UHGV virus genome: UHGV-0110762
Reading direction: 5' to 3' (one strand)
Length of the DNA: 37,161 bases
DNA from: a virus
Part shown: positions 5,837-37,161 of the stretch, one piece after another
Numbering within the stretch: the stretch's first letter is position 1
Layout: each line of letters starts with the position of its first letter
Program-made: the position numbers and the translations under genes
The notes under the pieces: model-generated
The model's input: the letters and a program-made list of their open reading frames with translations, nothing else
Told to the model about the DNA's origin: nothing
Databases searched by the model: none

Positions 5837-6469
5837 CTAAAGGTCAATGATAATTTGTTTAACTATCCCAATTAGATTGGTCTCTTGATTCACCTCAATG
5901 GGTTTAAACGCAGGATTCAGTGGGATTAGGTACGAAAACGGTGGGTCTATCGCCAGCTTTTTTAAAGTTGCCTCACCACCAGATACCGTTTGAGCAACGA
6001 CAATTTTACCGTTTGCCTCATCCACGAAGCCGAACTCTGGTTCAACAATAACAATAGAACCTTCAGGAATACTCAACTCCTGGCTAGAAGTCATTGAATC
6101 TCCCTTAACCCTCAAAGCAAAGGCGGAATCAGAAAGTTTTCGAGTGGTTTTCACTTGTTCATTATTAGGATTTCCAATTACTTCCGTCCAATTACCAGCT
6201 TGCACCCATGATATGAGAGGGACCTCTCTGGCAGACATCAAGTTGATGTTAATGCCATTTTCGATATCGCCTGAACCAAAAACCAACCATTCTGGCGAGC
6301 ACTGAAGGCATTTACACACCAATATCAAGTTCTCACCAGAAAGTTTTGTTAAATCACTTTCCCACTGGGTCACAGCAGACGCGCTTACTCCTGCCCACTC
6401 AGCCACATCGCGCTGGGTAAGTTTTTTCTGCTTTCTTCTAAATCTCAGTCTGCTGCCAACGGTATCCAT
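5837..6469 (-). CDS. cI: CI-like prophage repressor (N-terminal XRE HTH, C-terminal S24 LexA-like peptidase)
   Basis: N-terminal LTQRDVAEWAGVSASAVTQWE HTH; C-terminal ALRVKGDSM...KK Ser-Lys dyad typical of S24 autoproteolytic repressors; divergent from a Cro-like gene. Confidence 0.85.
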   Translation of the reverse strand: MDTVGSRLRFRRKQKKLTQRDVAEWAGVSASAVTQWESDLTKLSGENLILVCKCLQCSPEWLVFGSGDIENGININLMSAREVPLISWVQAGNWTEVIGNPNNEQVKTTRKLSDSAFALRVKGDSMTSSQELSIPEGSIVIVEPEFGFVDEANGKIVVAQTVSGGEATLKKLAIDPPFSYLIPLNPAFKPIEVNQETNLIGIVKQIIIDL

Positions 6470-6796: not shown

Positions 6797-7348
6797 GTGG
6801 GTAATGAACCTAGTTGGAAAGTCGAACGTCAGCCAGCCTGGCTGGTGGTCGCAATAAAAAAAACCATTACCGACCTTCCTGGTGGGTATGCCGAGGCCGC
6901 GGAATGGTTAGGAACTTCAGAGAACGGGTTGTTCAACCGTCTCCGCACTGAGGGCGATCAGATATTCCCGTTGGGTTGGGCGATGGTTCTACAGCGTGCT
7001 GGTGGTTCGACTCATATTGCTGATGCCGTTGCGCGCCATTCTCAAGGCGTATTCGTACCGCTGGCAGATGTTGATGATTTGGATAACGCCGATATTAACC
7101 AGCGCCTGATGGAGTCCATTGAATGGATTGGTCGTCATTCTACCTTTGTGCGAAAGGCTACTGCTGATGGGGTGATTGACGCAGATGAGCGTGCTCAGAT
7201 AGAGGAGAACAGCTACCAGGTGATCGCGAAGTTTCAGGAGCACGTCACGCTGCTTTACCGAGTTTTTTGTGTCGCTGAAAAGAGTGACGCCCGCGAGTGT
7301 GCAGCTCCGGGCGCCTTGGCGAACAACTCTTCGAGTATGGAGAAATAA
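6797..7348 (+). CDS. CII-like / early regulatory protein (tentative functional call)
   Basis: GTG start with AAGGGGG RBS directly after cro; 183 aa; position equals lambda cII; functional assignment is by position and vague family recollection only. Confidence 0.45.
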   Translation: MGNEPSWKVERQPAWLVVAIKKTITDLPGGYAEAAEWLGTSENGLFNRLRTEGDQIFPLGWAMVLQRAGGSTHIADAVARHSQGVFVPLADVDDLDNADINQRLMESIEWIGRHSTFVRKATADGVIDADERAQIEENSYQVIAKFQEHVTLLYRVFCVAEKSDARECAAPGALANNSSSMEK

Positions 7349-7700: not shown

Positions 7701-8556
7701 ATTAACCGGCTACGTATGGGATGGTTGCGCAGCGTCGGGCATGAAGTTGTCCAGTGTTGCGATCATGGCTCGCCTTGCTGACTTCAGCAGCGATGAAGGT
7801 GTGTGCTGGCCGTCAATTGAAACTATTGCTCGCCAGCTTGGCGCAGGCCCGAGCACTATCAGAACGGCAATCGCAAAGCTTGAAAAAGATGGCTGGCTCA
7901 CACGTACACAGCGCCGTAATGGTAACCGTAATGCTTCGAACGTGTATCGGCTGAATGTGGCGAAACTTCAGACTGCCGCATTTTCTCAACTGTCAGATTC
8001 TGACACGTCAAAATCTGACGCATCAAAATTTGACGCCTCAAAAACTGACCCGTCGAAATCTGGCAAAAACGATGGTTTTGACCCGTCAGAATCTGGCGGG
8101 GATCCGTCAGTAAAATCAAAACAAGATCCACAAGTAACTTCAAAACCCTCTTGTCCGGTTGCGGCGCAACCCGACCCTGAGGTTGTGATTACTGATCAGG
8201 CCAGACAGGTCTTGTCTTACCTGAACCAGACAACTGGCTCACGCTACCAGGTATGCAGTACGTCGCTGGAGAATATTCGCGCCCGTCTTCGGGAACAATT
8301 CACGGTTGATGACCTGTGCCTGGTAGTGGATTACAAAAATGCCGATTGGCGTGATAGCGAGCAGGCGCAATACCTCCGCCCGGCAACTCTGTTCATTCCA
8401 AAAAACTTCCCTGGTTACCTGCAAAGCGCGACCAAATGGTCCAGTGCTGGCCGGCCTGAACGCGTTAACGGCAAATGGGAGACTAACTCAGCCAGCCGCG
8501 CAAACTTCCAGAGTGTTGATTACTCACTGCCAGAAAATTCGGGGTTCCGTTCATGA
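7690..8556 (+). CDS. Replication initiator, lambda O-like (N-terminal HTH origin-binding domain, low-complexity linker, conserved C-terminal domain)
   Basis: N-terminus SVAIMARLADFSSDEGVCWPSIETIARQLGAGPSTIRTAIAKLEKDGWL is a typical phage replication-protein HTH; contains tandem DNA iterons inside the coding region as lambda O does. Confidence 0.7.
   Translation: MSTKLTGYVWDGCAASGMKLSSVAIMARLADFSSDEGVCWPSIETIARQLGAGPSTIRTAIAKLEKDGWLTRTQRRNGNRNASNVYRLNVAKLQTAAFSQLSDSDTSKSDASKFDASKTDPSKSGKNDGFDPSESGGDPSVKSKQDPQVTSKPSCPVAAQPDPEVVITDQARQVLSYLNQTTGSRYQVCSTSLENIRARLREQFTVDDLCLVVDYKNADWRDSEQAQYLRPATLFIPKNFPGYLQSATKWSSAGRPERVNGKWETNSASRANFQSVDYSLPENSGFRS
7992..8118. repeat. Iteron array (candidate phage origin): five tandem 15-bp repeats of the GTCARAATCTGAC type (7992-8064) plus two degenerate copies (8084-8096, 8106-8118)
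   Basis: Direct repeats gtcagattctgac / gtcaaaatctgac / atcaaaatttgac / ctcaaaaactgac / gtcgaaatctggc at a 15-bp period; each unit has inverted ends (GTCAG...CTGAC); they encode the repetitive SDTSKSDASKFDASKTDPSKSG peptide. Confidence 0.55.
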
Positions 8557-9872
8557 TGACCAATAAATATTGCCAGGTGCTGGCGGCACTGCGTAGCAAA
8601 CCAGCTCACGAATTGAAAGAAGTTGGCGATCAGTGGCGGACACCGGATCTGCTTTTTTGGGGGATCAACGCGCTATTTGGTCCATTAGTTCTGGACTTGT
8701 TTGCTGACGACGACAACGCGAAGTGCCCAGCATGGTACACCGCCGAAGATAACGCGCTGACACAGCACTGGTCTGAACGTCTGGCAGAACTGGGCGGCGC
8801 TGGTTATGGCAACCCTCCGTATAGCCGTTCGCAGTACCACGAGAAGCAGGCGATCACCGGCATGACGCATATCATGAACTACGCAGCAGCCCAGCGCGAG
8901 AAGGGCGGTCGCTATGTATTCCTGATAAAAGCCGCGCCGAGTGAAACGTGGTGGCCAGAAGATGCCGATCACATTGTATTCATTCGTGGTCGTATTGGGT
9001 TCGATCTGCCTGTGTGGTTTGTACCTGCTGACGAAAAACAGAAACCCACCAGCGCGTTTTTTGCCGGTGCCATAGCTGTATTCGATAAGTCGTGGCGTGG
9101 TGAGCGGTTCAGCTATATCAACCGCACAGAACTGGAGGCAAAAGGGCGGGCGTTTATGACTTTGGCGCAATTTGCTGCCAGCAAGTCTCAACCTGCAACT
9201 GCCACACCTCCTGCAGCTGATAAGCCAGAAGCTGAGTTGCCACTCACTCAGAAAGATATTTTTGATGTCAGCGGCGTCGAGGCGTGGGCATGCGTTAGAG
9301 CTGCGTTTGGCGATAAAGAAGAATACACATTCAGTGAATCGAAGTTTGGGCATACCTGGGCGGCGGATTCTGTTGAAGCACCGGAATTCACTCAGGTATC
9401 ACCATTAACGATCGACAAAGCGAAGCTGCTTATTCGTGAGAGTATTTTGTTCGGTGTGGATGAGTGGTTGTTGTCGATTGAATTCGATGACGCTGCAGTG
9501 CGCCTGGATATGTCGGAACGTATTCGCACTGTTGCCCTTGAAGCATCCGGTGAATATGGCATGAACAGCACTGATTTCATTGCAGCCATGGGAAGCCTGG
9601 ATGTTTCCAGATGGTCCAATATTCGCCAGATCCGCATGCACATCCGTGAGAAAGCTAAACCAGTAGCGGATCCGCTTCCCGAGTCCCGTATCTGGCCACT
9701 GGAGGTTGGGATTGTGTTCAACCAGGTAGATGGCGCTGACATGTTGGATGAATCACAGCAGAACAAGCTGAAAGCCAACATCAATCAACTCTGGCTGGAA
9801 CGAACGGCCACCAGCGAAATCATTACTGCCGCTTCTGAACTTGTTCGCAATATGCGGGGAGAGGCCGCGTGA
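8553..9872 (+). CDS. Phage Dam-family N6-adenine DNA methyltransferase fused to a roughly 225-aa C-terminal domain of unknown function
   Basis: N-terminal about 215 aa carry the phage Dam family pattern (WRTPDLLF...LDLFADDDNAKC..YTAEDNAL...GNPPYS); ORF continues uninterrupted for a further 225 aa; ATGA overlap with the O-like gene. Confidence 0.65.
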   Translation: MMTNKYCQVLAALRSKPAHELKEVGDQWRTPDLLFWGINALFGPLVLDLFADDDNAKCPAWYTAEDNALTQHWSERLAELGGAGYGNPPYSRSQYHEKQAITGMTHIMNYAAAQREKGGRYVFLIKAAPSETWWPEDADHIVFIRGRIGFDLPVWFVPADEKQKPTSAFFAGAIAVFDKSWRGERFSYINRTELEAKGRAFMTLAQFAASKSQPATATPPAADKPEAELPLTQKDIFDVSGVEAWACVRAAFGDKEEYTFSESKFGHTWAADSVEAPEFTQVSPLTIDKAKLLIRESILFGVDEWLLSIEFDDAAVRLDMSERIRTVALEASGEYGMNSTDFIAAMGSLDVSRWSNIRQIRMHIREKAKPVADPLPESRIWPLEVGIVFNQVDGADMLDESQQNKLKANINQLWLERTATSEIITAASELVRNMRGEAA

Positions 9873-12791: not shown

Positions 12792-12834
12792 TTTAGCGTC
12801 ATGATGTTTGCAATGTTGCCGTATTTGTGTATAT

Positions 12835-12862
12835 TTGACATCAATGATGGGCTTTGTATAAC
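12835..12862 (+). promoter_or_regulatory. Strong sigma70-type promoter (TTGACA-16 bp-TATAAC), candidate late promoter pR'
   Basis: Perfect -35 TTGACA at 12835-12840, 16-bp spacer, TATAAC at 12857-12862, 44 bp after the Q-like gene stop. Confidence 0.55.
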
Positions 12863-12880
12863 TATCGATCACTATGATAA

Positions 12881-12903
12881 CCTCACCTCGGTGGGGTTTT
12901 TTT
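12881..12903 (+). terminator. Rho-independent terminator (candidate tR') about 20-35 nt downstream of the promoter
   Basis: Hairpin CCTCACC-TCG-GTGGGG followed by TTTTTTT; promoter plus immediate terminator is the arrangement Q acts on in lambdoid phages. Confidence 0.5.
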
Positions 12904-12914
12904 ATGGTGATAGT

Positions 12915-13451
12915 ATGGAACTGACTAAAGAAAATGTTGCATTAATTGCTGCTTTGGGGATTTTTGTGGGTACATTGATAACTTCTCTTACAAGTTACCT
13001 CCAGAACAGTAGTAGGCAGTCGCATGAGTGGCGCTCAGAAAGAAATAGAAGGAAAATTGAAAAGGGTGAACAGCTTTATGAGGCATTAATACTTTATAAA
13101 AAATTGCTTTTTGCCAATCATATGAGCTGGATAAATTGTATTGATGGGTGTTTTAAATCTGAGGACATTGGCGATAAATCAGACGAAATTCTCAGTAAAA
13201 ACCCTGAGTATAAAGGAGTTGGTGATAGAATTATTTTAATCTCTGGTGTTTATTTTCCTGAGATTAGCGTTATGTTTGATGAATCTAGAAAATTGCTGAA
13301 ACCAGCCAATTCTGTTTTCTTCAAAATACAGTCAGGTGAAGTTGACGATAAGAAATTGGCGAAGAATATAATTCTAAACGCTGGTCATAATTTTGATAAG
13401 GAGGCTAATAAAATGTTGGACTGTTTATCGAAAGAGATTAGATCGTTGTAA
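12915..13451 (+). CDS. Moron: membrane-anchored hypothetical protein (179 aa, one N-terminal TM helix)
   Basis: AT-rich codon usage distinct from surrounding phage genes; N-terminal hydrophobic segment VALIAALGIFVGTLITSLTSYL followed by a charged soluble domain; between tR'-like terminator and holin. Confidence 0.5.
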   Translation: MELTKENVALIAALGIFVGTLITSLTSYLQNSSRQSHEWRSERNRRKIEKGEQLYEALILYKKLLFANHMSWINCIDGCFKSEDIGDKSDEILSKNPEYKGVGDRIILISGVYFPEISVMFDESRKLLKPANSVFFKIQSGEVDDKKLAKNIILNAGHNFDKEANKMLDCLSKEIRSL

Positions 13452-15501: not shown

Positions 15502-15942
15502 TTAATAGGATATTTTATCGGAAGACTTGAGCGCTTTTAATGTAGCTTCAAGTATATCGAGAAATAGATCAACATCTTCATAATCATAAGATGGATTAGG
15601 TTTGTACTCCCCAATGTAAACCAACCCATTTTTACCTAAAAAGAAGCTAATTACTTCCTTGTTATTTTCATCAGTTGAGTCAGTTGCAACGAACTTCAAA
15701 AGAGGGGCTTCATTGATGACTACCAGTTTCTCATTGAAAACGAGTTCTAACCCATATGTTGAAAGTTCTAGGGTTAGTCTGTTTTCTGCATCTTGATTGA
15801 AAATCAAGGTGTTAGAAGTTAAAGAACTTTCTTTGCATGAGTCAATAACGTTTTTCTTAAGTTTGATTGCTTTTTCATCTAAAGCCTTTTTGTGTTCTGC
15901 ACACTTAATAACCTTACGGACGTCTAAATAGTCGATGCTCAT
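15502..15942 (-). CDS. Moron: hypothetical acidic protein (146 aa), opposite strand to the late operon
   Basis: ATG 15942 with AGAGG RBS; strongly AT-rich; no TM segment; no recognisable motif. Confidence 0.5.
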   Translation of the reverse strand: MSIDYLDVRKVIKCAEHKKALDEKAIKLKKNVIDSCKESSLTSNTLIFNQDAENRLTLELSTYGLELVFNEKLVVINEAPLLKFVATDSTDENNKEVISFFLGKNGLVYIGEYKPNPSYDYEDVDLFLDILEATLKALKSSDKISY

Positions 15943-16033
15943 AATTAAACCTCTTATTGATGAGTTAATAAACATTGAGCCATTAAGGCCAATATCAATA
16001 CTAAAGAATGAGAAAGTTTAAGTTATTAGAGTT

Positions 16034-20322: not shown

Positions 20323-21821
20323 GCGCCCTGGATAATCTGATAGGCATGTTTTCCCCGGGCTGGAAAGCGGAGCGCCTGAAGTCGCGCCTGATGATCCAGG
20401 CATATGAGGCTGTCATTCCTACCCGGACGCACCGGGCAAAACGCGAAAACCGCTCCGCGAATCAGTTGACGCAATTCGGCGGGCGATCGCTGCGCGAACA
20501 AGCCCGGTGGCTTGACTGTAACCACGATCTGGTGATCGGCCTCCTTGATAAACTCGAAGAGCGCATTGTGGGGGCAAAAGGCATCATCGTGGAGCCGCAG
20601 CCCCTGATGAGTAACGGGGGCATCGCTACTGACCTTGCTACACAGATCCGCGCCAAATGGGCGGAGTGGTCCGTTTCTCCCGATGTTACCGGGCAGTTTA
20701 CCCGACCAGTGCTTGAGCGCCTGATGTGCCGGACCTGGTTACGTGACGGCGAGGTGTTCGCGCAGCTGGTCAGTGGCACCGGGAACGGTCTGTCGCCGGT
20801 GGCAGACATTCCTTTCTGGATTGAGGCTCTGGAACCGGATTTTGTGCCGATGGAGCGGACAGAGCCGGGTCAGAAGTTATGCCAGGGCATTTACCTGAAT
20901 GACTGGGGCCGCCCGACCCGATACATGGTCTACAAAAACCTTCCGGCGGAAGGCATGCGCCAGGGAGATACCAAGGATATTCAGGCGGAGAATATGCTTC
21001 ACCTGAAGTTCATGCGCCGCCTGCATCAAATCCGGGGTAACTCACTGCTTGCCGGGGTGCTGATGCGTCTTTCGGCGCTGAAGGAGTACGAGGACGCCGA
21101 ACTGACCGCTGCCCGCATTGCTGCGGCACTGGGCATGTTCATTAAAAAAGGTGATGGCCAGACTTATGACGAAGGCAGCAGCGGTCAAAGGGAGCTAAAC
21201 ATCGAGCCCGGCATGCTGTTTGACGATCTCCGCCCGGGTGAAGACATCGGCATGATCAAGTCAGACCGACCAAATCCCAACCTCGAAACTTTCCGTAATA
21301 GCCAGCTACGTGCTGTAGCCGCTGGTTCGCGCGGTAGCTTTTCAAGTATCGCCCGTAACTACGACGGAACATACAGCGCGCAGCGCCAGGAGCTGGTGGA
21401 GTCAACCGAAGGCTATTTCATTCTTCAGGACGCATTCATCGCGGCGATCACACGACCTATGTACCGGGCCTGGCTCAGGATGGCGATTGCTTCAGGCGAG
21501 ATCACGGTCCCGAAAAATGTCGATAAAGCCACGCTCTTTAGCGCCGTGTTCTCCGGGCCCGTTATGCCCTGGATTGACCCGGTCAAAGAGGCGAACGCCT
21601 GGAAAATTCTGCTGCGTGGCGGTGCTGCGACAGAGAGTGAATGGGTGCGCGCCCGCGGCGCAAATCCTGATGATGTTAAGCGCCGCCGTAAGGCGGAGGT
21701 TGACGAGAACCGTAAACAGGGGCTGGTGTTTGATACCGACCCGGCAAATGACAAAGGAGACACTCGTGTCCAGGAAGCAAAACCGGGTAAAGAACCGCCC
21801 GAAAGCCCAGGCAAAAAATAG
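20319..21821 (+). CDS. Portal protein, lambda gpB family
   Basis: 500 aa following the W-like gene with ATGA overlap; size and order as lambda B. Confidence 0.85.
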   Translation: MSALDNLIGMFSPGWKAERLKSRLMIQAYEAVIPTRTHRAKRENRSANQLTQFGGRSLREQARWLDCNHDLVIGLLDKLEERIVGAKGIIVEPQPLMSNGGIATDLATQIRAKWAEWSVSPDVTGQFTRPVLERLMCRTWLRDGEVFAQLVSGTGNGLSPVADIPFWIEALEPDFVPMERTEPGQKLCQGIYLNDWGRPTRYMVYKNLPAEGMRQGDTKDIQAENMLHLKFMRRLHQIRGNSLLAGVLMRLSALKEYEDAELTAARIAAALGMFIKKGDGQTYDEGSSGQRELNIEPGMLFDDLRPGEDIGMIKSDRPNPNLETFRNSQLRAVAAGSRGSFSSIARNYDGTYSAQRQELVESTEGYFILQDAFIAAITRPMYRAWLRMAIASGEITVPKNVDKATLFSAVFSGPVMPWIDPVKEANAWKILLRGGAATESEWVRARGANPDDVKRRRKAEVDENRKQGLVFDTDPANDKGDTRVQEAKPGKEPPESPGKK

Positions 21822-23778
21822 CTGGTTCCGTATGCAGGCCAGTTCGGAAAACGAAGCCGAAATCTACATCTACGACGAGATCGGCTACTGGGGGGTAACG
21901 GCGAAGCAGTTCGTCGCAAACCTTAAGGCGCTGGGCGATGTCACCCACATCAAACTGCATATCAACTCCCCTGGTGGCGATGTCTTTGACGGTATCGCCA
22001 TTTTTAATGCCCTGAAATTCCACGGCGCGGCGATCACCGTTTATATCGACGGTCTGGCTGCCTCAATGGCATCAGTCATCGCCATGGTAGGAAACCCGGT
22101 CATCATGCCGGAAAACACCATGATGATGATCCACAAGCCGTGGGGTTTTGCGGGTGGTGATGCTGATGACATGCGCGACTACGCCGACCTGCTCGACAAA
22201 GTGGAGTCGGTGTTGATCCCGGCATACGCGCAGAAGACGGGAAAAAGCACCGAAGAAATTGCGGCAATGCTGGAGGAAGAGACCTGGCTCTCCAGCACTG
22301 AATGTCTGGAGCTGGGCTTCGCTGACCAGGTCACACCATCCTTGCAGGCAATGGCCTGCATCCATTCGAAACGTATTGAGGAATTTGAAAAGATGCCAAA
22401 CAGCATTCGCAACATGGTCACCCCGCCGCGCAATACCGCTACGCGCGAAACACAGCAGCCAACTGTCACCCAGCCGGCTCCGGCGGCAGGTGCCAGCGAA
22501 ACTGATATCCGTGCGCAGGTTATTGCGGAGCAAAAGGCACGCGTGAACGGTATTCAGGATCTCTTCGCCATGTTCGGCGGAAAGCATCAGGAGCTGCAGG
22601 CTAAATGTATTGCCGATCCAGAGTGCTCGGTCAGCCAGGCGAAAGATGTTCTTCTGGCAGAGCTCGGTAAAAATGCCACGCCGTCCAACACCACTACGCA
22701 GGGGCAGGCCCATGTGTATGCCGGGAACGGTAACTTTGTTGGCGACGGGATCCGCCAGGCGCTGATGGCGCGTGCCGGTTATGAAAATGTTGAGCGTGAC
22801 AACGTCTATAACGGTATGACGCTGCGCGAATACGCCCGCATGTCCTTGACCGAGCGCGGCATCGGGGTCTCCAGTTACAACCCGATGCAGATGGTCGGTT
22901 TTGCGCTGACGCACAGCACCTCCGATTTTGGCAATATCCTGCTCGATGTCGCCAACAAAGCGCTGTTGCAGGGCTGGGATGAAGCGGCAGAGACCTTTGA
23001 ACTCTGGACCAAAAAAGGCCAGCTCTCTGACTTCAAAACGGCGCATCGCGTCGGCATGGGGGGCTTCCCGTCCCTGCGTCAGGTGCGAGAGGGCGCGGAG
23101 TATAAGTACATCACCACGCAGGATAAGGGTGAAACCATCGCGCTGGCTACTTACGGTGAGATCTTCTCCATCACCCGCCAGGCCATTATCAACGATGACC
23201 TGAACCAGCTGACTGACGTTCCGATGAAGATGGGCCGCGCTGCAAAAGCCACTATCGGTGACCTGGTCTACGCCGTGCTGACCGGTAACGGGAAACTTTC
23301 AGATGGCAAGGCGCTCTTCCATGCTGACCATGCCAACCTTTCAGCTGGCGCCATCAGCGTTGACAGCCTGGATAAGGCCCGCCAGAACATGCGCAAGCAG
23401 AAAGAGGGCGAGCGCGCCCTGAACATTCGTCCGGCCTACATGCTGGTTCCGGTGGGTCTGGAAACATTAGCCAGCCAGACCATTAAGTCAGCAAGCGTGA
23501 AAGGGGCTGATATCAATGCCGGCGTGGTGAACCCGCTGCAGAACTTTGCCGAAGTGATCGCAGAAGCGCGTCTGGATGACGCCGACCCGGCGGCCTGGTA
23601 TCTGGCTGCCGCACAGGGCACCGATACCATCGAAGTGGCGTACCTCAATGGCATTGATGCCCCGTACATCGACCAGCAGGAAGGTTTCACCACTGATGGT
23701 GTTGCGACGAAAGTCCGCATCGATGCTGGTGTGGCGCCGCTGGATTATCGCGGCCTGGCGAAATCATCCGGTAAGTAA
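21766..23778 (+). CDS. Prohead protease (ClpP/S14-like) - scaffold - major capsid protein fusion; start uncertain (GTG 21766 after AAGGAG, or ATG 21748)
   Basis: N-terminal WF..AEIYIYDEIGYWG...INSPGGDVFDGIAI ClpP-like protease signature; C-terminal about 300 aa capsid-like; ORF track start 21487 lies deep inside the portal gene and is rejected. Confidence 0.75.
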   Translation: MSRKQNRVKNRPKAQAKNSWFRMQASSENEAEIYIYDEIGYWGVTAKQFVANLKALGDVTHIKLHINSPGGDVFDGIAIFNALKFHGAAITVYIDGLAASMASVIAMVGNPVIMPENTMMMIHKPWGFAGGDADDMRDYADLLDKVESVLIPAYAQKTGKSTEEIAAMLEEETWLSSTECLELGFADQVTPSLQAMACIHSKRIEEFEKMPNSIRNMVTPPRNTATRETQQPTVTQPAPAAGASETDIRAQVIAEQKARVNGIQDLFAMFGGKHQELQAKCIADPECSVSQAKDVLLAELGKNATPSNTTTQGQAHVYAGNGNFVGDGIRQALMARAGYENVERDNVYNGMTLREYARMSLTERGIGVSSYNPMQMVGFALTHSTSDFGNILLDVANKALLQGWDEAAETFELWTKKGQLSDFKTAHRVGMGGFPSLRQVREGAEYKYITTQDKGETIALATYGEIFSITRQAIINDDLNQLTDVPMKMGRAAKATIGDLVYAVLTGNGKLSDGKALFHADHANLSAGAISVDSLDKARQNMRKQKEGERALNIRPAYMLVPVGLETLASQTIKSASVKGADINAGVVNPLQNFAEVIAEARLDDADPAAWYLAAAQGTDTIEVAYLNGIDAPYIDQQEGFTTDGVATKVRIDAGVAPLDYRGLAKSSGK

Positions 23779-34265: not shown

Positions 34266-36629
34266 ATGGCACCATGCAACACTCTTAACCCGCCGGGTTC
34301 AACTGACCCACGCGATTTACGTGATAACGCTCAGAACCTGGATCAGGCGGTAAATGGAATTACCAACAAAACATGGACCGACAGGCTGGGTCGGATACGT
34401 AAATCGTGGAGTGGAATGGAATATGACTTCAATAATCAGATAGCTGATCAGGAAACGCGATTTCGCACCTTTATTGAAAATGCGGGCTATGACGTAATTG
34501 GAGATTATGAAGACGGCATAATTACTGTCTCTGAATACAATGAGCTGATTCGTTATGACGGTGAATTCTATAAGCTGTCTGCTGGTACCAAACCACCTTA
34601 TAAAACAGCCGGGACAACAAAAACTTCGTGGGATACAACTGACTCTTCCCATTTTGTCTCCGTAGGCGATGCCTCTCTTCGGCAGTTAATTCTCAGTGCT
34701 GCGGCACCATTATTTCAGGGACATATTAAAACCCTGGATTACTGGGCAGCAAAAATGCATGCCGGAGAGACGGTTATTATTACCAGCATAGCCGATTCGA
34801 CCGGTGATGGTAATGGCTCCACGGGGTGGACGGCAAACCCCACCACGCCTGTAACTGGCTTCCCGTGGGCCACTGCACCTCTGGCCAACAGTGACCATAA
34901 CGCAGAAGCGCCCAATGCATGGTGTGCCAGACTGCAGACAATCCTTCGGCAGTACCATCGTAACAACAACATTAGCGTTTATAACGCTGGGTATTCCGGC
35001 CAGCAAATGCAGAACGGCTGGGTAAATTATTACTTTGATAAAATCGTCCTGCAAAACCCCTATATTCCTTCTAACCCGGATATCGTGATCATCAGCTTCG
35101 GGCTGAACGATATTACAGACGCAGGAAATAAAATCACCGAGCATATCGCGCAAACAATCGAGGTCATGAAGAAGGTTATCGCAGCCGGCGCCACACCCGT
35201 ACTAACGACCTGCGATGCAAACTGGCGCTCCTACAACGGCTGGAACTCTGGTACTTCCGGGCGTGACAATGAAGAAGCTGCAGCCCAGATCGATGCCGCG
35301 AAAAAATACATGGCGGAGGTGCTGGGGGTGTCCATTATCGATCAGGACTTCATGCAAAAAACATGGATGTCCAAAAACAGCGATTACTCCAACCAGTATG
35401 AACTCCAGCCTGACGGCCTGCACTGGGGGGACGTTGGCCATGCGATGAAAGCGTCCTTTGTCGCTCAGTCGTTTATGCCTGACATTCTTCGCTGCTACGG
35501 TACTGATATTGAGCGTATCTGCTGGATGGACAGCCGGATGCGATATTCGAAGGACTACAATTCCAGCTGGGTTCCTGATACGGGGTCGGAGGGATATAAA
35601 TACTCGCGGTTCCCGCGGATCTGGTACATCCAGGCCGCAGACTATGTGGCGAGCGAGGTTATCTTTGACTTCTTCGTGTGGAGCGAGGGTAATCAGGATT
35701 CCCTGATATACCGCAATTTTGGCAACAGCAATATTGGATCTACATATGCAGCCGACCAGCTGCCGCGCGTGAGGGTCTTTTCACTCGGTAACTCTTCCGC
35801 CTATTACGATAAAGAGCTTCCGGACACCGGAGAGAACGAAGCAGCCATCAACGCGACAGACCGTCCATTCTATCTTACCAAGTTGAAATACGGGCTTAAC
35901 CGTATCCAGGTGATCGCGCCATCGGCGACAGTTCTCGGGGCATTCTGGGGCGGCTGGTTTGAGTTCAATCCGTTCTGGAAGGCCAGGGACACCTTTGGCT
36001 ACGTGAACAACTACGGCGCGCCAAATTATATTCAGGTGAATGCGCTGGAGAAAACCGGGCCTCTCGATTTCCGCTTCGAGGCGGATGCCACAAATAACCG
36101 CGTGGCGTTCATGAATCCTGAGATGTTTGACGGCACAAACTGCGCTGATATTGGACAGGTAGGTGACAAAGTTGAAATCCTGGTTGAGGGCTTCTTCGAC
36201 ACGGATACGGGTTTTCTTTTCTTTGGCGGGAAGTCCCTCAACCGAAACTCGGGAGCTGCAGATAATTATCAGGAGGATAATTGCCTGCTTTTGTATGCCA
36301 CGTCGAAAACATTTAACCTGCTACAGCTGCGCTATCCATACCAGGGTTCCGCTCCCTATCCTCAGATCCAGGCCGGGATAGACGATGTTTATAGTCCCAC
36401 CGATAGGGCAAGAAAGTTCCTCATCCGCTGCGAAAAAACCTCGCCTACAACTCAGACCGTTAAGGTCTACGACGGGTGGGAGACTATCGACACCCCTGTC
36501 CTGAACTATACGGGAGACTGGACGCAGGGGAAGTTCTGCGGCGGTGGGATTATTGGCGGAGTTTACGCAACGAGAAACATTGCCAGGACGGTGCGGATCA
36601 CTCAGTTGTTGATTCGTAAATTCAAATAA
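34266..36629 (+). CDS. Tail spike / side tail fibre with SGNH (GDSL-like) hydrolase domain, probable receptor-modifying esterase
   Basis: ATG 34266 after GGAGA; conserved tail-fibre N-terminus (NTLNPPGSTDPRDLRDNAQNLDQAVNGI); central IADSTGDG (block I-like) and ISFGLNDITD (GxND block) consistent with SGNH esterases. Confidence 0.65.
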   Translation: MAPCNTLNPPGSTDPRDLRDNAQNLDQAVNGITNKTWTDRLGRIRKSWSGMEYDFNNQIADQETRFRTFIENAGYDVIGDYEDGIITVSEYNELIRYDGEFYKLSAGTKPPYKTAGTTKTSWDTTDSSHFVSVGDASLRQLILSAAAPLFQGHIKTLDYWAAKMHAGETVIITSIADSTGDGNGSTGWTANPTTPVTGFPWATAPLANSDHNAEAPNAWCARLQTILRQYHRNNNISVYNAGYSGQQMQNGWVNYYFDKIVLQNPYIPSNPDIVIISFGLNDITDAGNKITEHIAQTIEVMKKVIAAGATPVLTTCDANWRSYNGWNSGTSGRDNEEAAAQIDAAKKYMAEVLGVSIIDQDFMQKTWMSKNSDYSNQYELQPDGLHWGDVGHAMKASFVAQSFMPDILRCYGTDIERICWMDSRMRYSKDYNSSWVPDTGSEGYKYSRFPRIWYIQAADYVASEVIFDFFVWSEGNQDSLIYRNFGNSNIGSTYAADQLPRVRVFSLGNSSAYYDKELPDTGENEAAINATDRPFYLTKLKYGLNRIQVIAPSATVLGAFWGGWFEFNPFWKARDTFGYVNNYGAPNYIQVNALEKTGPLDFRFEADATNNRVAFMNPEMFDGTNCADIGQVGDKVEILVEGFFDTDTGFLFFGGKSLNRNSGAADNYQEDNCLLLYATSKTFNLLQLRYPYQGSAPYPQIQAGIDDVYSPTDRARKFLIRCEKTSPTTQTVKVYDGWETIDTPVLNYTGDWTQGKFCGGGIIGGVYATRNIARTVRITQLLIRKFK

Positions 36630-36685
36630 CCCCCGGTGGCGTAGATTGATAGGTGTCGCCTCATTGATCTGCAACCCCTTTAAAA

Positions 36686-36705
36686 CTACTGTATATAAAA
36701 ACAGT
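36686..36705 (+). promoter_or_regulatory. LexA (SOS) box TACTGTATATAAAAACAGTG
   Basis: Matches the LexA consensus CTGT-N8-ACAG; lies 16 nt upstream of the umuD-like start codon. Confidence 0.7.
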
Positions 36706-36721
36706 GAAAGGAGTGCAGATC

Positions 36722-37111
36722 ATGGGCTTTCCTTCACCTGCTGCAGATTATGTTGAAACACGAATCTCCCTCGATCAGCAGTTAATCAGCCAGCCCGCAG
36801 CGACTTATTTCATGCGTGCATCGCGTTCACATTTCAGGGAAGGGATAATTCAGGGGGCGCTGCTTGTTGTTGATGCCTCACTTTCAGCCTGTGATGGCTC
36901 GCTGCTGATATGTGCGATAGACGGGGAATTCAGGATCAAGCGATATCGGACTCATCCTCAACCCCACCTGGTTAATCTGGAGAACGGGAGAAGGGAGGCG
37001 TTGCCAGTAGATGATGACGGTTACAGTTCTGCACCCGCTATATTCGGGGTGATCACGTACATCATTAATGATGCCAGGAACGCGGAGTTTGATGACTGCC
37101 CGGTGATGTGA
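36722..37111 (+). CDS. umuD: UmuD-like protein (S24 family, error-prone polymerase V accessory subunit) beginning at the position of the UmuD' cleavage product
   Basis: ATG 36722 lies 8 nt after AAGGAG; MGFPSPAADYVE...ATYF...LLVVD...DGEF.IKR matches E. coli UmuD from Gly25 onward as recalled; no coding capacity for the N-terminal arm. Confidence 0.75.
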   Translation: MGFPSPAADYVETRISLDQQLISQPAATYFMRASRSHFREGIIQGALLVVDASLSACDGSLLICAIDGEFRIKRYRTHPQPHLVNLENGRREALPVDDDGYSSAPAIFGVITYIINDARNAEFDDCPVM

Positions 37112-37161
37112 ATAGTTGAAACTTTACGGTAAAGTCGATGTTTTGTGTCGGGGTTTTTCCC

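Follow-up and report, generated by a model that had tools for sequence, protein, structure and literature searches.

A lambdoid prophage next to proL carries a humD gene for a UmuD'-like protein at its right end

Close to the right end of the virus genome UHGV-0110762, which was analysed here as a single window of 37,161 nucleotides, lies a umuD-like gene whose product starts at the residue that RecA-stimulated self-cleavage of UmuD normally exposes. The locus raises the question of whether a phage gene can natively encode the activated UmuD' form under SOS control, and, if so, which UmuC that product would serve. The evidence set out below indicates that the gene, humD, is very probably a moron-type accessory gene carried at the right-hand end of an Escherichia coli lambdoid prophage integrated at proL, and that its product would be a LexA-controlled, pre-activated UmuD' working with the UmuC of the host.

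The open reading frame extends from an ATG at 36722 to a TGA at 37109-37111 and encodes 129 residues; the protein opens with MGFPSPAADYVETRISLDQQ and its full translation is MGFPSPAADYVETRISLDQQLISQPAATYFMRASRSHFREGIIQGALLVVDASLSACDGSLLICAIDGEFRIKRYRTHPQPHLVNLENGRREALPVDDDGYSSAPAIFGVITYIINDARNAEFDDCPVM. The features of the locus, from left to right, are as follows.

36664..36692, plus strand: putative promoter, with a -35-like TTGATC (36664-36669), a 17-nt spacer and a -10-like TACTGT (36687-36692) that lies in the operator
36687..36706, plus strand: LexA operator (SOS box) TACTGTATATAAAAACAGTG, predicted by sequence; 19 of its 20 bases equal those of the K-12 umuDC operator
36709..36713, plus strand: Shine-Dalgarno AGGAG, 8 nt before the ATG, read off the sequence
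36722..37111, plus strand: humD reading frame of 129 codons and a stop; its product, of UmuD'-like S24 fold, begins at the equivalent of UmuD Gly25
37112..37161, no strand: non-coding phage DNA between humD and attR; it does not resemble the proL region of K-12, which is free of the prophage, and no umuC starts in it

GFPSPAADY follows the ATG at 36722 directly, at the position of UmuD Gly25. An earlier note on this DNA had proposed that a Met stands exactly where cleavage generates UmuD' and that both the N-terminal arm and the cleavage site are missing from the DNA itself, and both proposals hold. UmuD aligns to the protein from residue 25, and an in-frame stop is found 18 codons 5' of the ATG, the upstream frame reading H, stop, SATPLKLLYIKTVKGVQI and then MGF. 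Alternative starts are limited to two GTG codons, at 36704 and 36713, which lie inside the operator and ribosome-binding site and add only MKGVQI. Neither the UmuD arm (MLFIKPADLREIVTFPLFSDLVQC) nor a Cys-Gly site could be read in frame upstream of the ATG. Given the stop and the short reach of the two GTG codons, the arm and the cleavage site are not encoded; an upstream start restoring the arm was considered and is ruled out by the same two observations. The same ATG was chosen by independent gene callers on identical or near-identical DNA. The canonical LexA box and the ribosome-binding site likewise proved to be where the note had put them, the operator at 36687-36706 and AGGAG at 36709-36713, while one coordinate had to be amended: the ATG is at 36722 and not at 36686, since 36686/7 marks the start of the LexA box and the span 36686-37111 comprises the operator plus the gene.

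Profile searches placed the protein in a described family. NCBIfam model NF051876 ("HumD family translesion DNA polymerase", an equivalog) scored 224.2 bits against a cutoff of 120, with residues 1-129 covering positions 1-129 of the 129-position profile, whereas NF007621 (PRK10276), which models autoproteolytic UmuD, reached 92.2 bits, under its cutoff of 110. Pfam PF00717 (Peptidase_S24) matched at 34.8 bits (gathering threshold 23.3; E=1.4e-08), and among the PHROGs the protein fell into phrog_811, "UmuD-like protein". The UmuD' structure PDB 1UMU was matched at E=3e-23, with query residue 2 aligned to chain residue 1; full-length UmuD in 8GMT aligned from residue 25, and solved LexA C-terminal domains were also matched by sequence. 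When K-12 UmuD was searched against the window by tblastn, UmuD residues 25-139 aligned to 36725-37078.

Megablast gave no match for the 562-bp region in the phage collection. The family is diverged at the DNA level, so that a protein-level search was needed to find phage relatives, and tblastn against the phage records returned 91 records with a humD-like match. The best of these were the HumD proteins of P1, P7, SJ46, D6 and RCS47 (71-72% identity), followed by the HK140 and HK639 proteins (69%), phiKO2 gp23 (68%) and N15 gp26 (67%). Every phage member of a seven-sequence alignment opens with (M/V)GFPSPA, and the relatives in P1, N15, phiKO2, HK140 and E. coli prophages start alike, are 127-129 aa long and keep the C-terminal tail. 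This tail, residues ~113-129 of HumD (37057-37108), is a C-terminal extension of the form INDARxxEFDDCPV(M/I/L) that reaches about 10 residues beyond UmuD; it is present in all aligned HumD members and absent from E. coli UmuD.

Judged by every sequence-level defining feature that can be tested, the window gene is a member of the HumD family. It fails the features of autoproteolytic UmuD, having no arm or cleavage site, no umuC operon and a sub-cutoff score. The idea that a gene behind an SOS box makes the UmuD' form from the outset thus matches the description of HumD, and for the same reason the novelty that the earlier note had seen in it falls away: the family has already been described, and the NCBI annotation pipeline names it automatically. 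The gene is an ordinary copy of humD, from a family known since 1999. A phage gene for a ready-made UmuD' under LexA control and without umuC has been known since P1 HumD, and its discovery value is little.

The equivalent of UmuD Lys97 is K73, which is invariant in all seven aligned sequences. In place of the GDSM motif around the Ser stands (S)RSHF. Between "AS" and "GI" the protein is one residue shorter, which leaves the Ser register ambiguous by one residue, with Ser36 and His37 as the residues at issue; the nucleophile column holds S for the window, S for P1 and then T, T and T in the MAFFT register, and H, H, H, C and H in the HMMER register, extended by eye to further sequences. GDSM is conserved in neither register, and the divergence of the Ser motif that had been remarked on beforehand (RSHF in place of GDSM) is real whichever is adopted. 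Such divergence is what one expects of a protein that has nothing to cleave.

The operator TACTGTATATAAAAACAGTG is the sole CTGT-N8-ACAG in the 37-kb window, for which the chance expectation of the core alone is 0.35, and a search with the 20-mer LexA consensus at up to three mismatches returned this single match in the window and none in 100 shuffles. The K-12 umuDC operator, TACTGTATATAAAAACAGTA as read from the K-12 genome, differs from it at one base. LexA sites are annotated at the equivalent place upstream of P1 humD and of phiKO2 gene 23. The block ATTGATCTGC, which holds the -35-like TTGATC, is common to the window and to the region upstream of K-12 umuD, and in both it is set 17 nt from the operator. 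A generic sigma-70 promoter and terminator scan reported neither feature at humD, the promoter being missed because its -10-like element matches at only 3 of 6 positions; because the consensus scan reported none, we infer the humD promoter at 36664..36692 from homology to umuDC only.

The likeness to the host control region goes beyond these elements and is unusual for this copy of humD. When 36645-36706 was set against positions 283-348 of the K-12 locus (L010), ATTGATAG, ATTGATCTGC and 19 of the 20 operator bases were found in common, with nearly equal spacing, whereas the upstream regions of P1, N15 and HK140 are far less like the umuDC control region than that of the window. The resemblance suggests descent from, or recombination with, the host umuDC. 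One may speculate further that prophages and host umuDC recombine and so regenerate or re-tune humD genes again and again, which would set their induction in exact lock-step with that of host umuC; with humD-like DNA in ~18% of complete E. coli genomes, pre-activated UmuD' from prophages would then possibly be an under-appreciated determinant of strain differences in SOS mutagenesis and resistance evolution. We rate this wider proposal as rather unlikely.

In UmuD the cleavage site, the signals recognised by proteases and a clamp-binding motif all lie in the N-terminal arm. A product that lacks the arm could act as follows. In an undamaged lysogen, host LexA would bind the promoter-overlapping operator seen here and keep humD off. 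Upon DNA damage RecA would be activated, LexA would cleave itself, and humD would be transcribed along with host umuDC. Its product would already be an S24 domain of UmuD' size, and RecA-mediated self-cleavage would be skipped. By analogy with P1 HumD, a HumD dimer together with host chromosomal UmuC and RecA would then form a Pol V-like translesion polymerase, and the step that delays SOS mutagenesis post-translationally would be bypassed.

That the window HumD would dimerise, bind UmuC and RecA and affect mutagenesis we infer from the P1 protein, which is 72% identical. P1 HumD reportedly forms dimers and binds both UmuC and RecA. Its complementation is said to be strong only from a high-copy plasmid and weak at low copy, and the protein to be kept at low levels, which means that its physiological contribution to mutagenesis may be small; as a counterpoint, the window HumD is 28% diverged from the protein that was tested. 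According to the title of the original study and to papers citing it, P1 HumD substitutes for UmuD' (McLenigan et al. 1999), and the P1 GenBank record carries the statement "functionally complements E. coli UmuD'".

The weak complementation reported for low-copy P1 HumD would also suit a second reading, which we think improbable, namely that HumD mainly modulates the SOS response of the host on behalf of the phage. To this end it would titrate UmuC, occupy RecA filaments or form a heterodimer with the full-length UmuD of the host, with an altered checkpoint or altered induction as the outcome and mutagenesis as a by-product. humD is often paired with a divergent, SOS-boxed dinI, which encodes a regulator of the RecA filament (in loci L001, L004, L006 and L008 and in HK140 and phiKO2), and the conserved NDARxxEFDDCPV extension, being missing in UmuD, hints at an additional interaction. 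Against this, complementation of UmuD' is positive in the sole experimental data on the family, as given by the title of the 1999 study and the P1 annotation, and the module with dinI is not obligatory, for tblastn found no DinI homologue in the window. The preferred reading is still that HumD supplies a pre-activated UmuD' to host UmuC.

Far less credible is the possibility that the gene is a decayed, 5'-truncated umuDC fragment, a pseudogene left behind by a deletion. The lack of an adjacent umuC and an upstream region that resembles the umuDC promoter-operator, as that of a deletion derivative would, speak in its favour. The substitution pattern does not: relative to a 93%-identical allele from an E. 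coli prophage (L001), humD has 20 synonymous and 3 non-synonymous differences (dN/dS 0.04), and relative to P1 humD dN/dS is ~0.09, with dS saturated. humD is thus under strong purifying selection and not decayed. The gene also has its own ribosome-binding site and ATG at the junction, its start, length and C-terminal tail recur in the phage and prophage relatives named above, the family is a curated equivalog, the exact protein occurs in 52 blocks of a public contig index, and the P1 orthologue is active. We regard this possibility as effectively refuted. The earlier note had tied the two matters together, holding that absence of a umuC partner would mark the gene as a decayed fragment; with dN/dS at 0.04-0.09, and with humD being defined by the lack of a cognate umuC, this was a false dichotomy.

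The DNA beyond the window could be read in a contig (L005) that was found by exact-protein lookup and matches the final 8440 bp of the window at 100% identity; the same arrangement of tail genes is seen in L002, L003, L005 and L007. In the L005 continuation, the frame from the ATG at 37138 ends after just 21 codons, MFCVGVFPRLFPVASPFRKQA being followed by a stop. The tRNA-Pro(GGG) gene proL comes after it on the opposite strand, ~80 bp past the end of the window and ~130 bp 3' of humD, and past proL the gene order is yejM (lapC), yejL, yejK, rplY, yejH, rsuA and bcr. This host flank is 99.8% identical to E. coli chromosomes, and identity with the prophage-free K-12 proL region starts at the 3' end of the tRNA. 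At 8391-8600 of L005, on the phage side, a stem-loop with a T-run resembles the native K-12 proL terminator without being identical to it. The window itself ends ~80 bp before the tRNA, and the integrase end lies outside it. humD is therefore the last gene of a lambdoid prophage and lies next to attR at proL.

No UmuC homologue or other Y-family polymerase was detected in the window by tblastn, and no umuC adjoins humD in P1, N15, phiKO2, HK140 or loci L001-L009; the gene order is lxr-humD-phd-doc in P1, tail fibre-humD-sopBA in N15 and phiKO2, and humD-attP-int in HK140. The expectation that a umuC begins just past the window, possibly at the ATG at 37138, is contradicted by this continuation, and a phage-borne, complete Pol V encoded by a humD-umuC operon across the window edge, for which the nearby ATG is the one point in favour, is refuted and has practically no chance of being correct. 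With no umuC linked to humD, the partner must be the UmuC of the host.

The remainder of the window is that of a lambdoid prophage. From left to right it begins with an exonuclease fragment and a cI-like S24 repressor, continues with cII-like and O-like proteins, a methyltransferase-like protein, an HNH protein, a Q-like antiterminator, a holin and an endolysin, and proceeds through the large terminase, portal, protease-capsid fusion, tape measure and J-like tail tip to a tailspike with an SGNH/GDSL esterase, with humD last. Carriage by a temperate phage is apparent from the cI-like repressor and the adjoining tRNA attachment site. An exact 50-mer scan of a collection holding one genome per species found the prophage absent from the representative genomes. 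What is particular to this copy is that humD comes straight after the esterase tailspike at the proL site, without the module of dinI and an 80-codon reading frame (orf80).

That module was observed elsewhere. An identical 129-aa HumD is found in unrelated prophage tails in the arrangement of dinI, one or more LexA boxes, and then, divergently, an 80-aa ORF followed by humD (L004, 7438-8390; see also L006, L008, L009, L001, HK140 (L012) and phiKO2 (L013)). The 80-aa ORF ends 2 nt before the humD ATG, and its product has no Pfam match. In L008 and L001, dinI alone lies upstream of humD and the 80-aa ORF is missing; the window has neither.

Several other genes of the prophage merit mention. Just 5' of humD, 34266-36629 (plus strand) encodes a tailspike or tail fibre of 787 aa that has an SGNH/GDSL esterase domain (PF13472, PF00657) in its middle part and may be a receptor-binding protein that deacetylates O-antigen or capsule; the gene shares only ~79% DNA identity with the nearest tailspikes in complete E. 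coli genomes. A second S24 protein, the cI-like repressor of 210 aa, is encoded at 5837-6469 (minus strand) and combines an N-terminal HTH with a C-terminal S24 domain (phrog_4, with a weak match to phrog_811); the cII-like gene, at 6797-7348, comes after it. The long ORF at 21487-23778 (plus strand) matches head maturation protease and major head protein as one product (phrog_133 over its full length, and phrog_4523), as in phages of the mEp043/mEp213 type. The listed 763-aa ORF for this fusion overlaps the portal gene, and its true start is probably further in. In the replication region, 8553-9872 (plus strand) encodes 439 aa that match the DNA methyltransferase family phrog_111 and the "PAPS reductase" family phrog_33262, a combination that may point to a DNA-modification moron. 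The products of 12801-13451 (plus strand, 216 aa) and 15502-15975 (minus strand, 157 aa) matched no PHROG family at E<=1e-5; the latter ORF is situated between the lysis genes and those for terminase, in the opposite orientation.

In E. coli at large humD is common. humD-like DNA was found in 970 of 5426 complete genomes (~18%, about one in six), at 694 places on plasmids, largely phage-plasmids of the P1 type, and at 394 on chromosomes, which means that both phage-plasmids and integrated prophages carry such genes in this species. The RefSeq label of these genes is often already "HumD family translesion DNA polymerase". A umuC is present in 5423 of the 5426 genomes. With umuC near-universal and humD in roughly a sixth of the genomes, prophage content could modulate damage-induced mutagenesis.

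HumD belongs beside other accessory subunits of the Pol V type that are SOS-regulated and borne on mobile elements, among them MucA, ImpA, RumA and SamA. These plasmid and ICE homologues of UmuD are described as full-length proteins that need cleavage and whose genes each share an operon with a UmuC homologue of their own (PMC7092418), and by these descriptions the window humD, with no need of cleavage and no umuC of its own, is set apart from them. With E. coli UmuD and UmuD' (1UMU, 1AY9, 1I4V and 8GMT) the window protein shares the S24 fold, 40-43% identity over UmuD residues 25-139 and the Lys97 equivalent K73, and the gene shares a nearly identical operator and the -35 block; it differs in lacking residues 1-24 with the Cys24-Gly25 site, the GDSM motif and the umuC operon, and in having 10 extra C-terminal residues.

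Closer relatives are N15 gp26, phiKO2 gp23, HK140 gp28 and the UmuD-like protein of HK639, which show 67-70% identity and are truncated in the same way. Their genes close the late operon, after those for the tail fibres, and in phiKO2 the LexA site is annotated. They have Thr at the nucleophile column (MAFFT register) where the window protein has Ser, and in HK140 and phiKO2 the gene is paired with a divergent dinI, accompanied in HK140 by the 80-aa upstream ORF; neither accompanies the window gene. The nearest characterised counterpart is P1 HumD. The window humD is the last gene between the tailspike and attR at proL, whereas that of P1 lies between lxr and phd-doc in a plasmid prophage; the window operator is nearer to the host umuDC operator than is that of P1, TACTGTATAAATGAACAGTA; and RSHF stands at the Ser-motif position where P1 has DSHH. 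The two agree in several features: both proteins are 129 aa long and they are 72% identical, the P1 protein likewise starts (MGFPSPAADYVE) at the equivalent of UmuD Gly25 and ends in the NDARxxEFDDCPV tail, and each gene is closely preceded by a LexA box, lacks a umuC beside it and is carried by a temperate phage.
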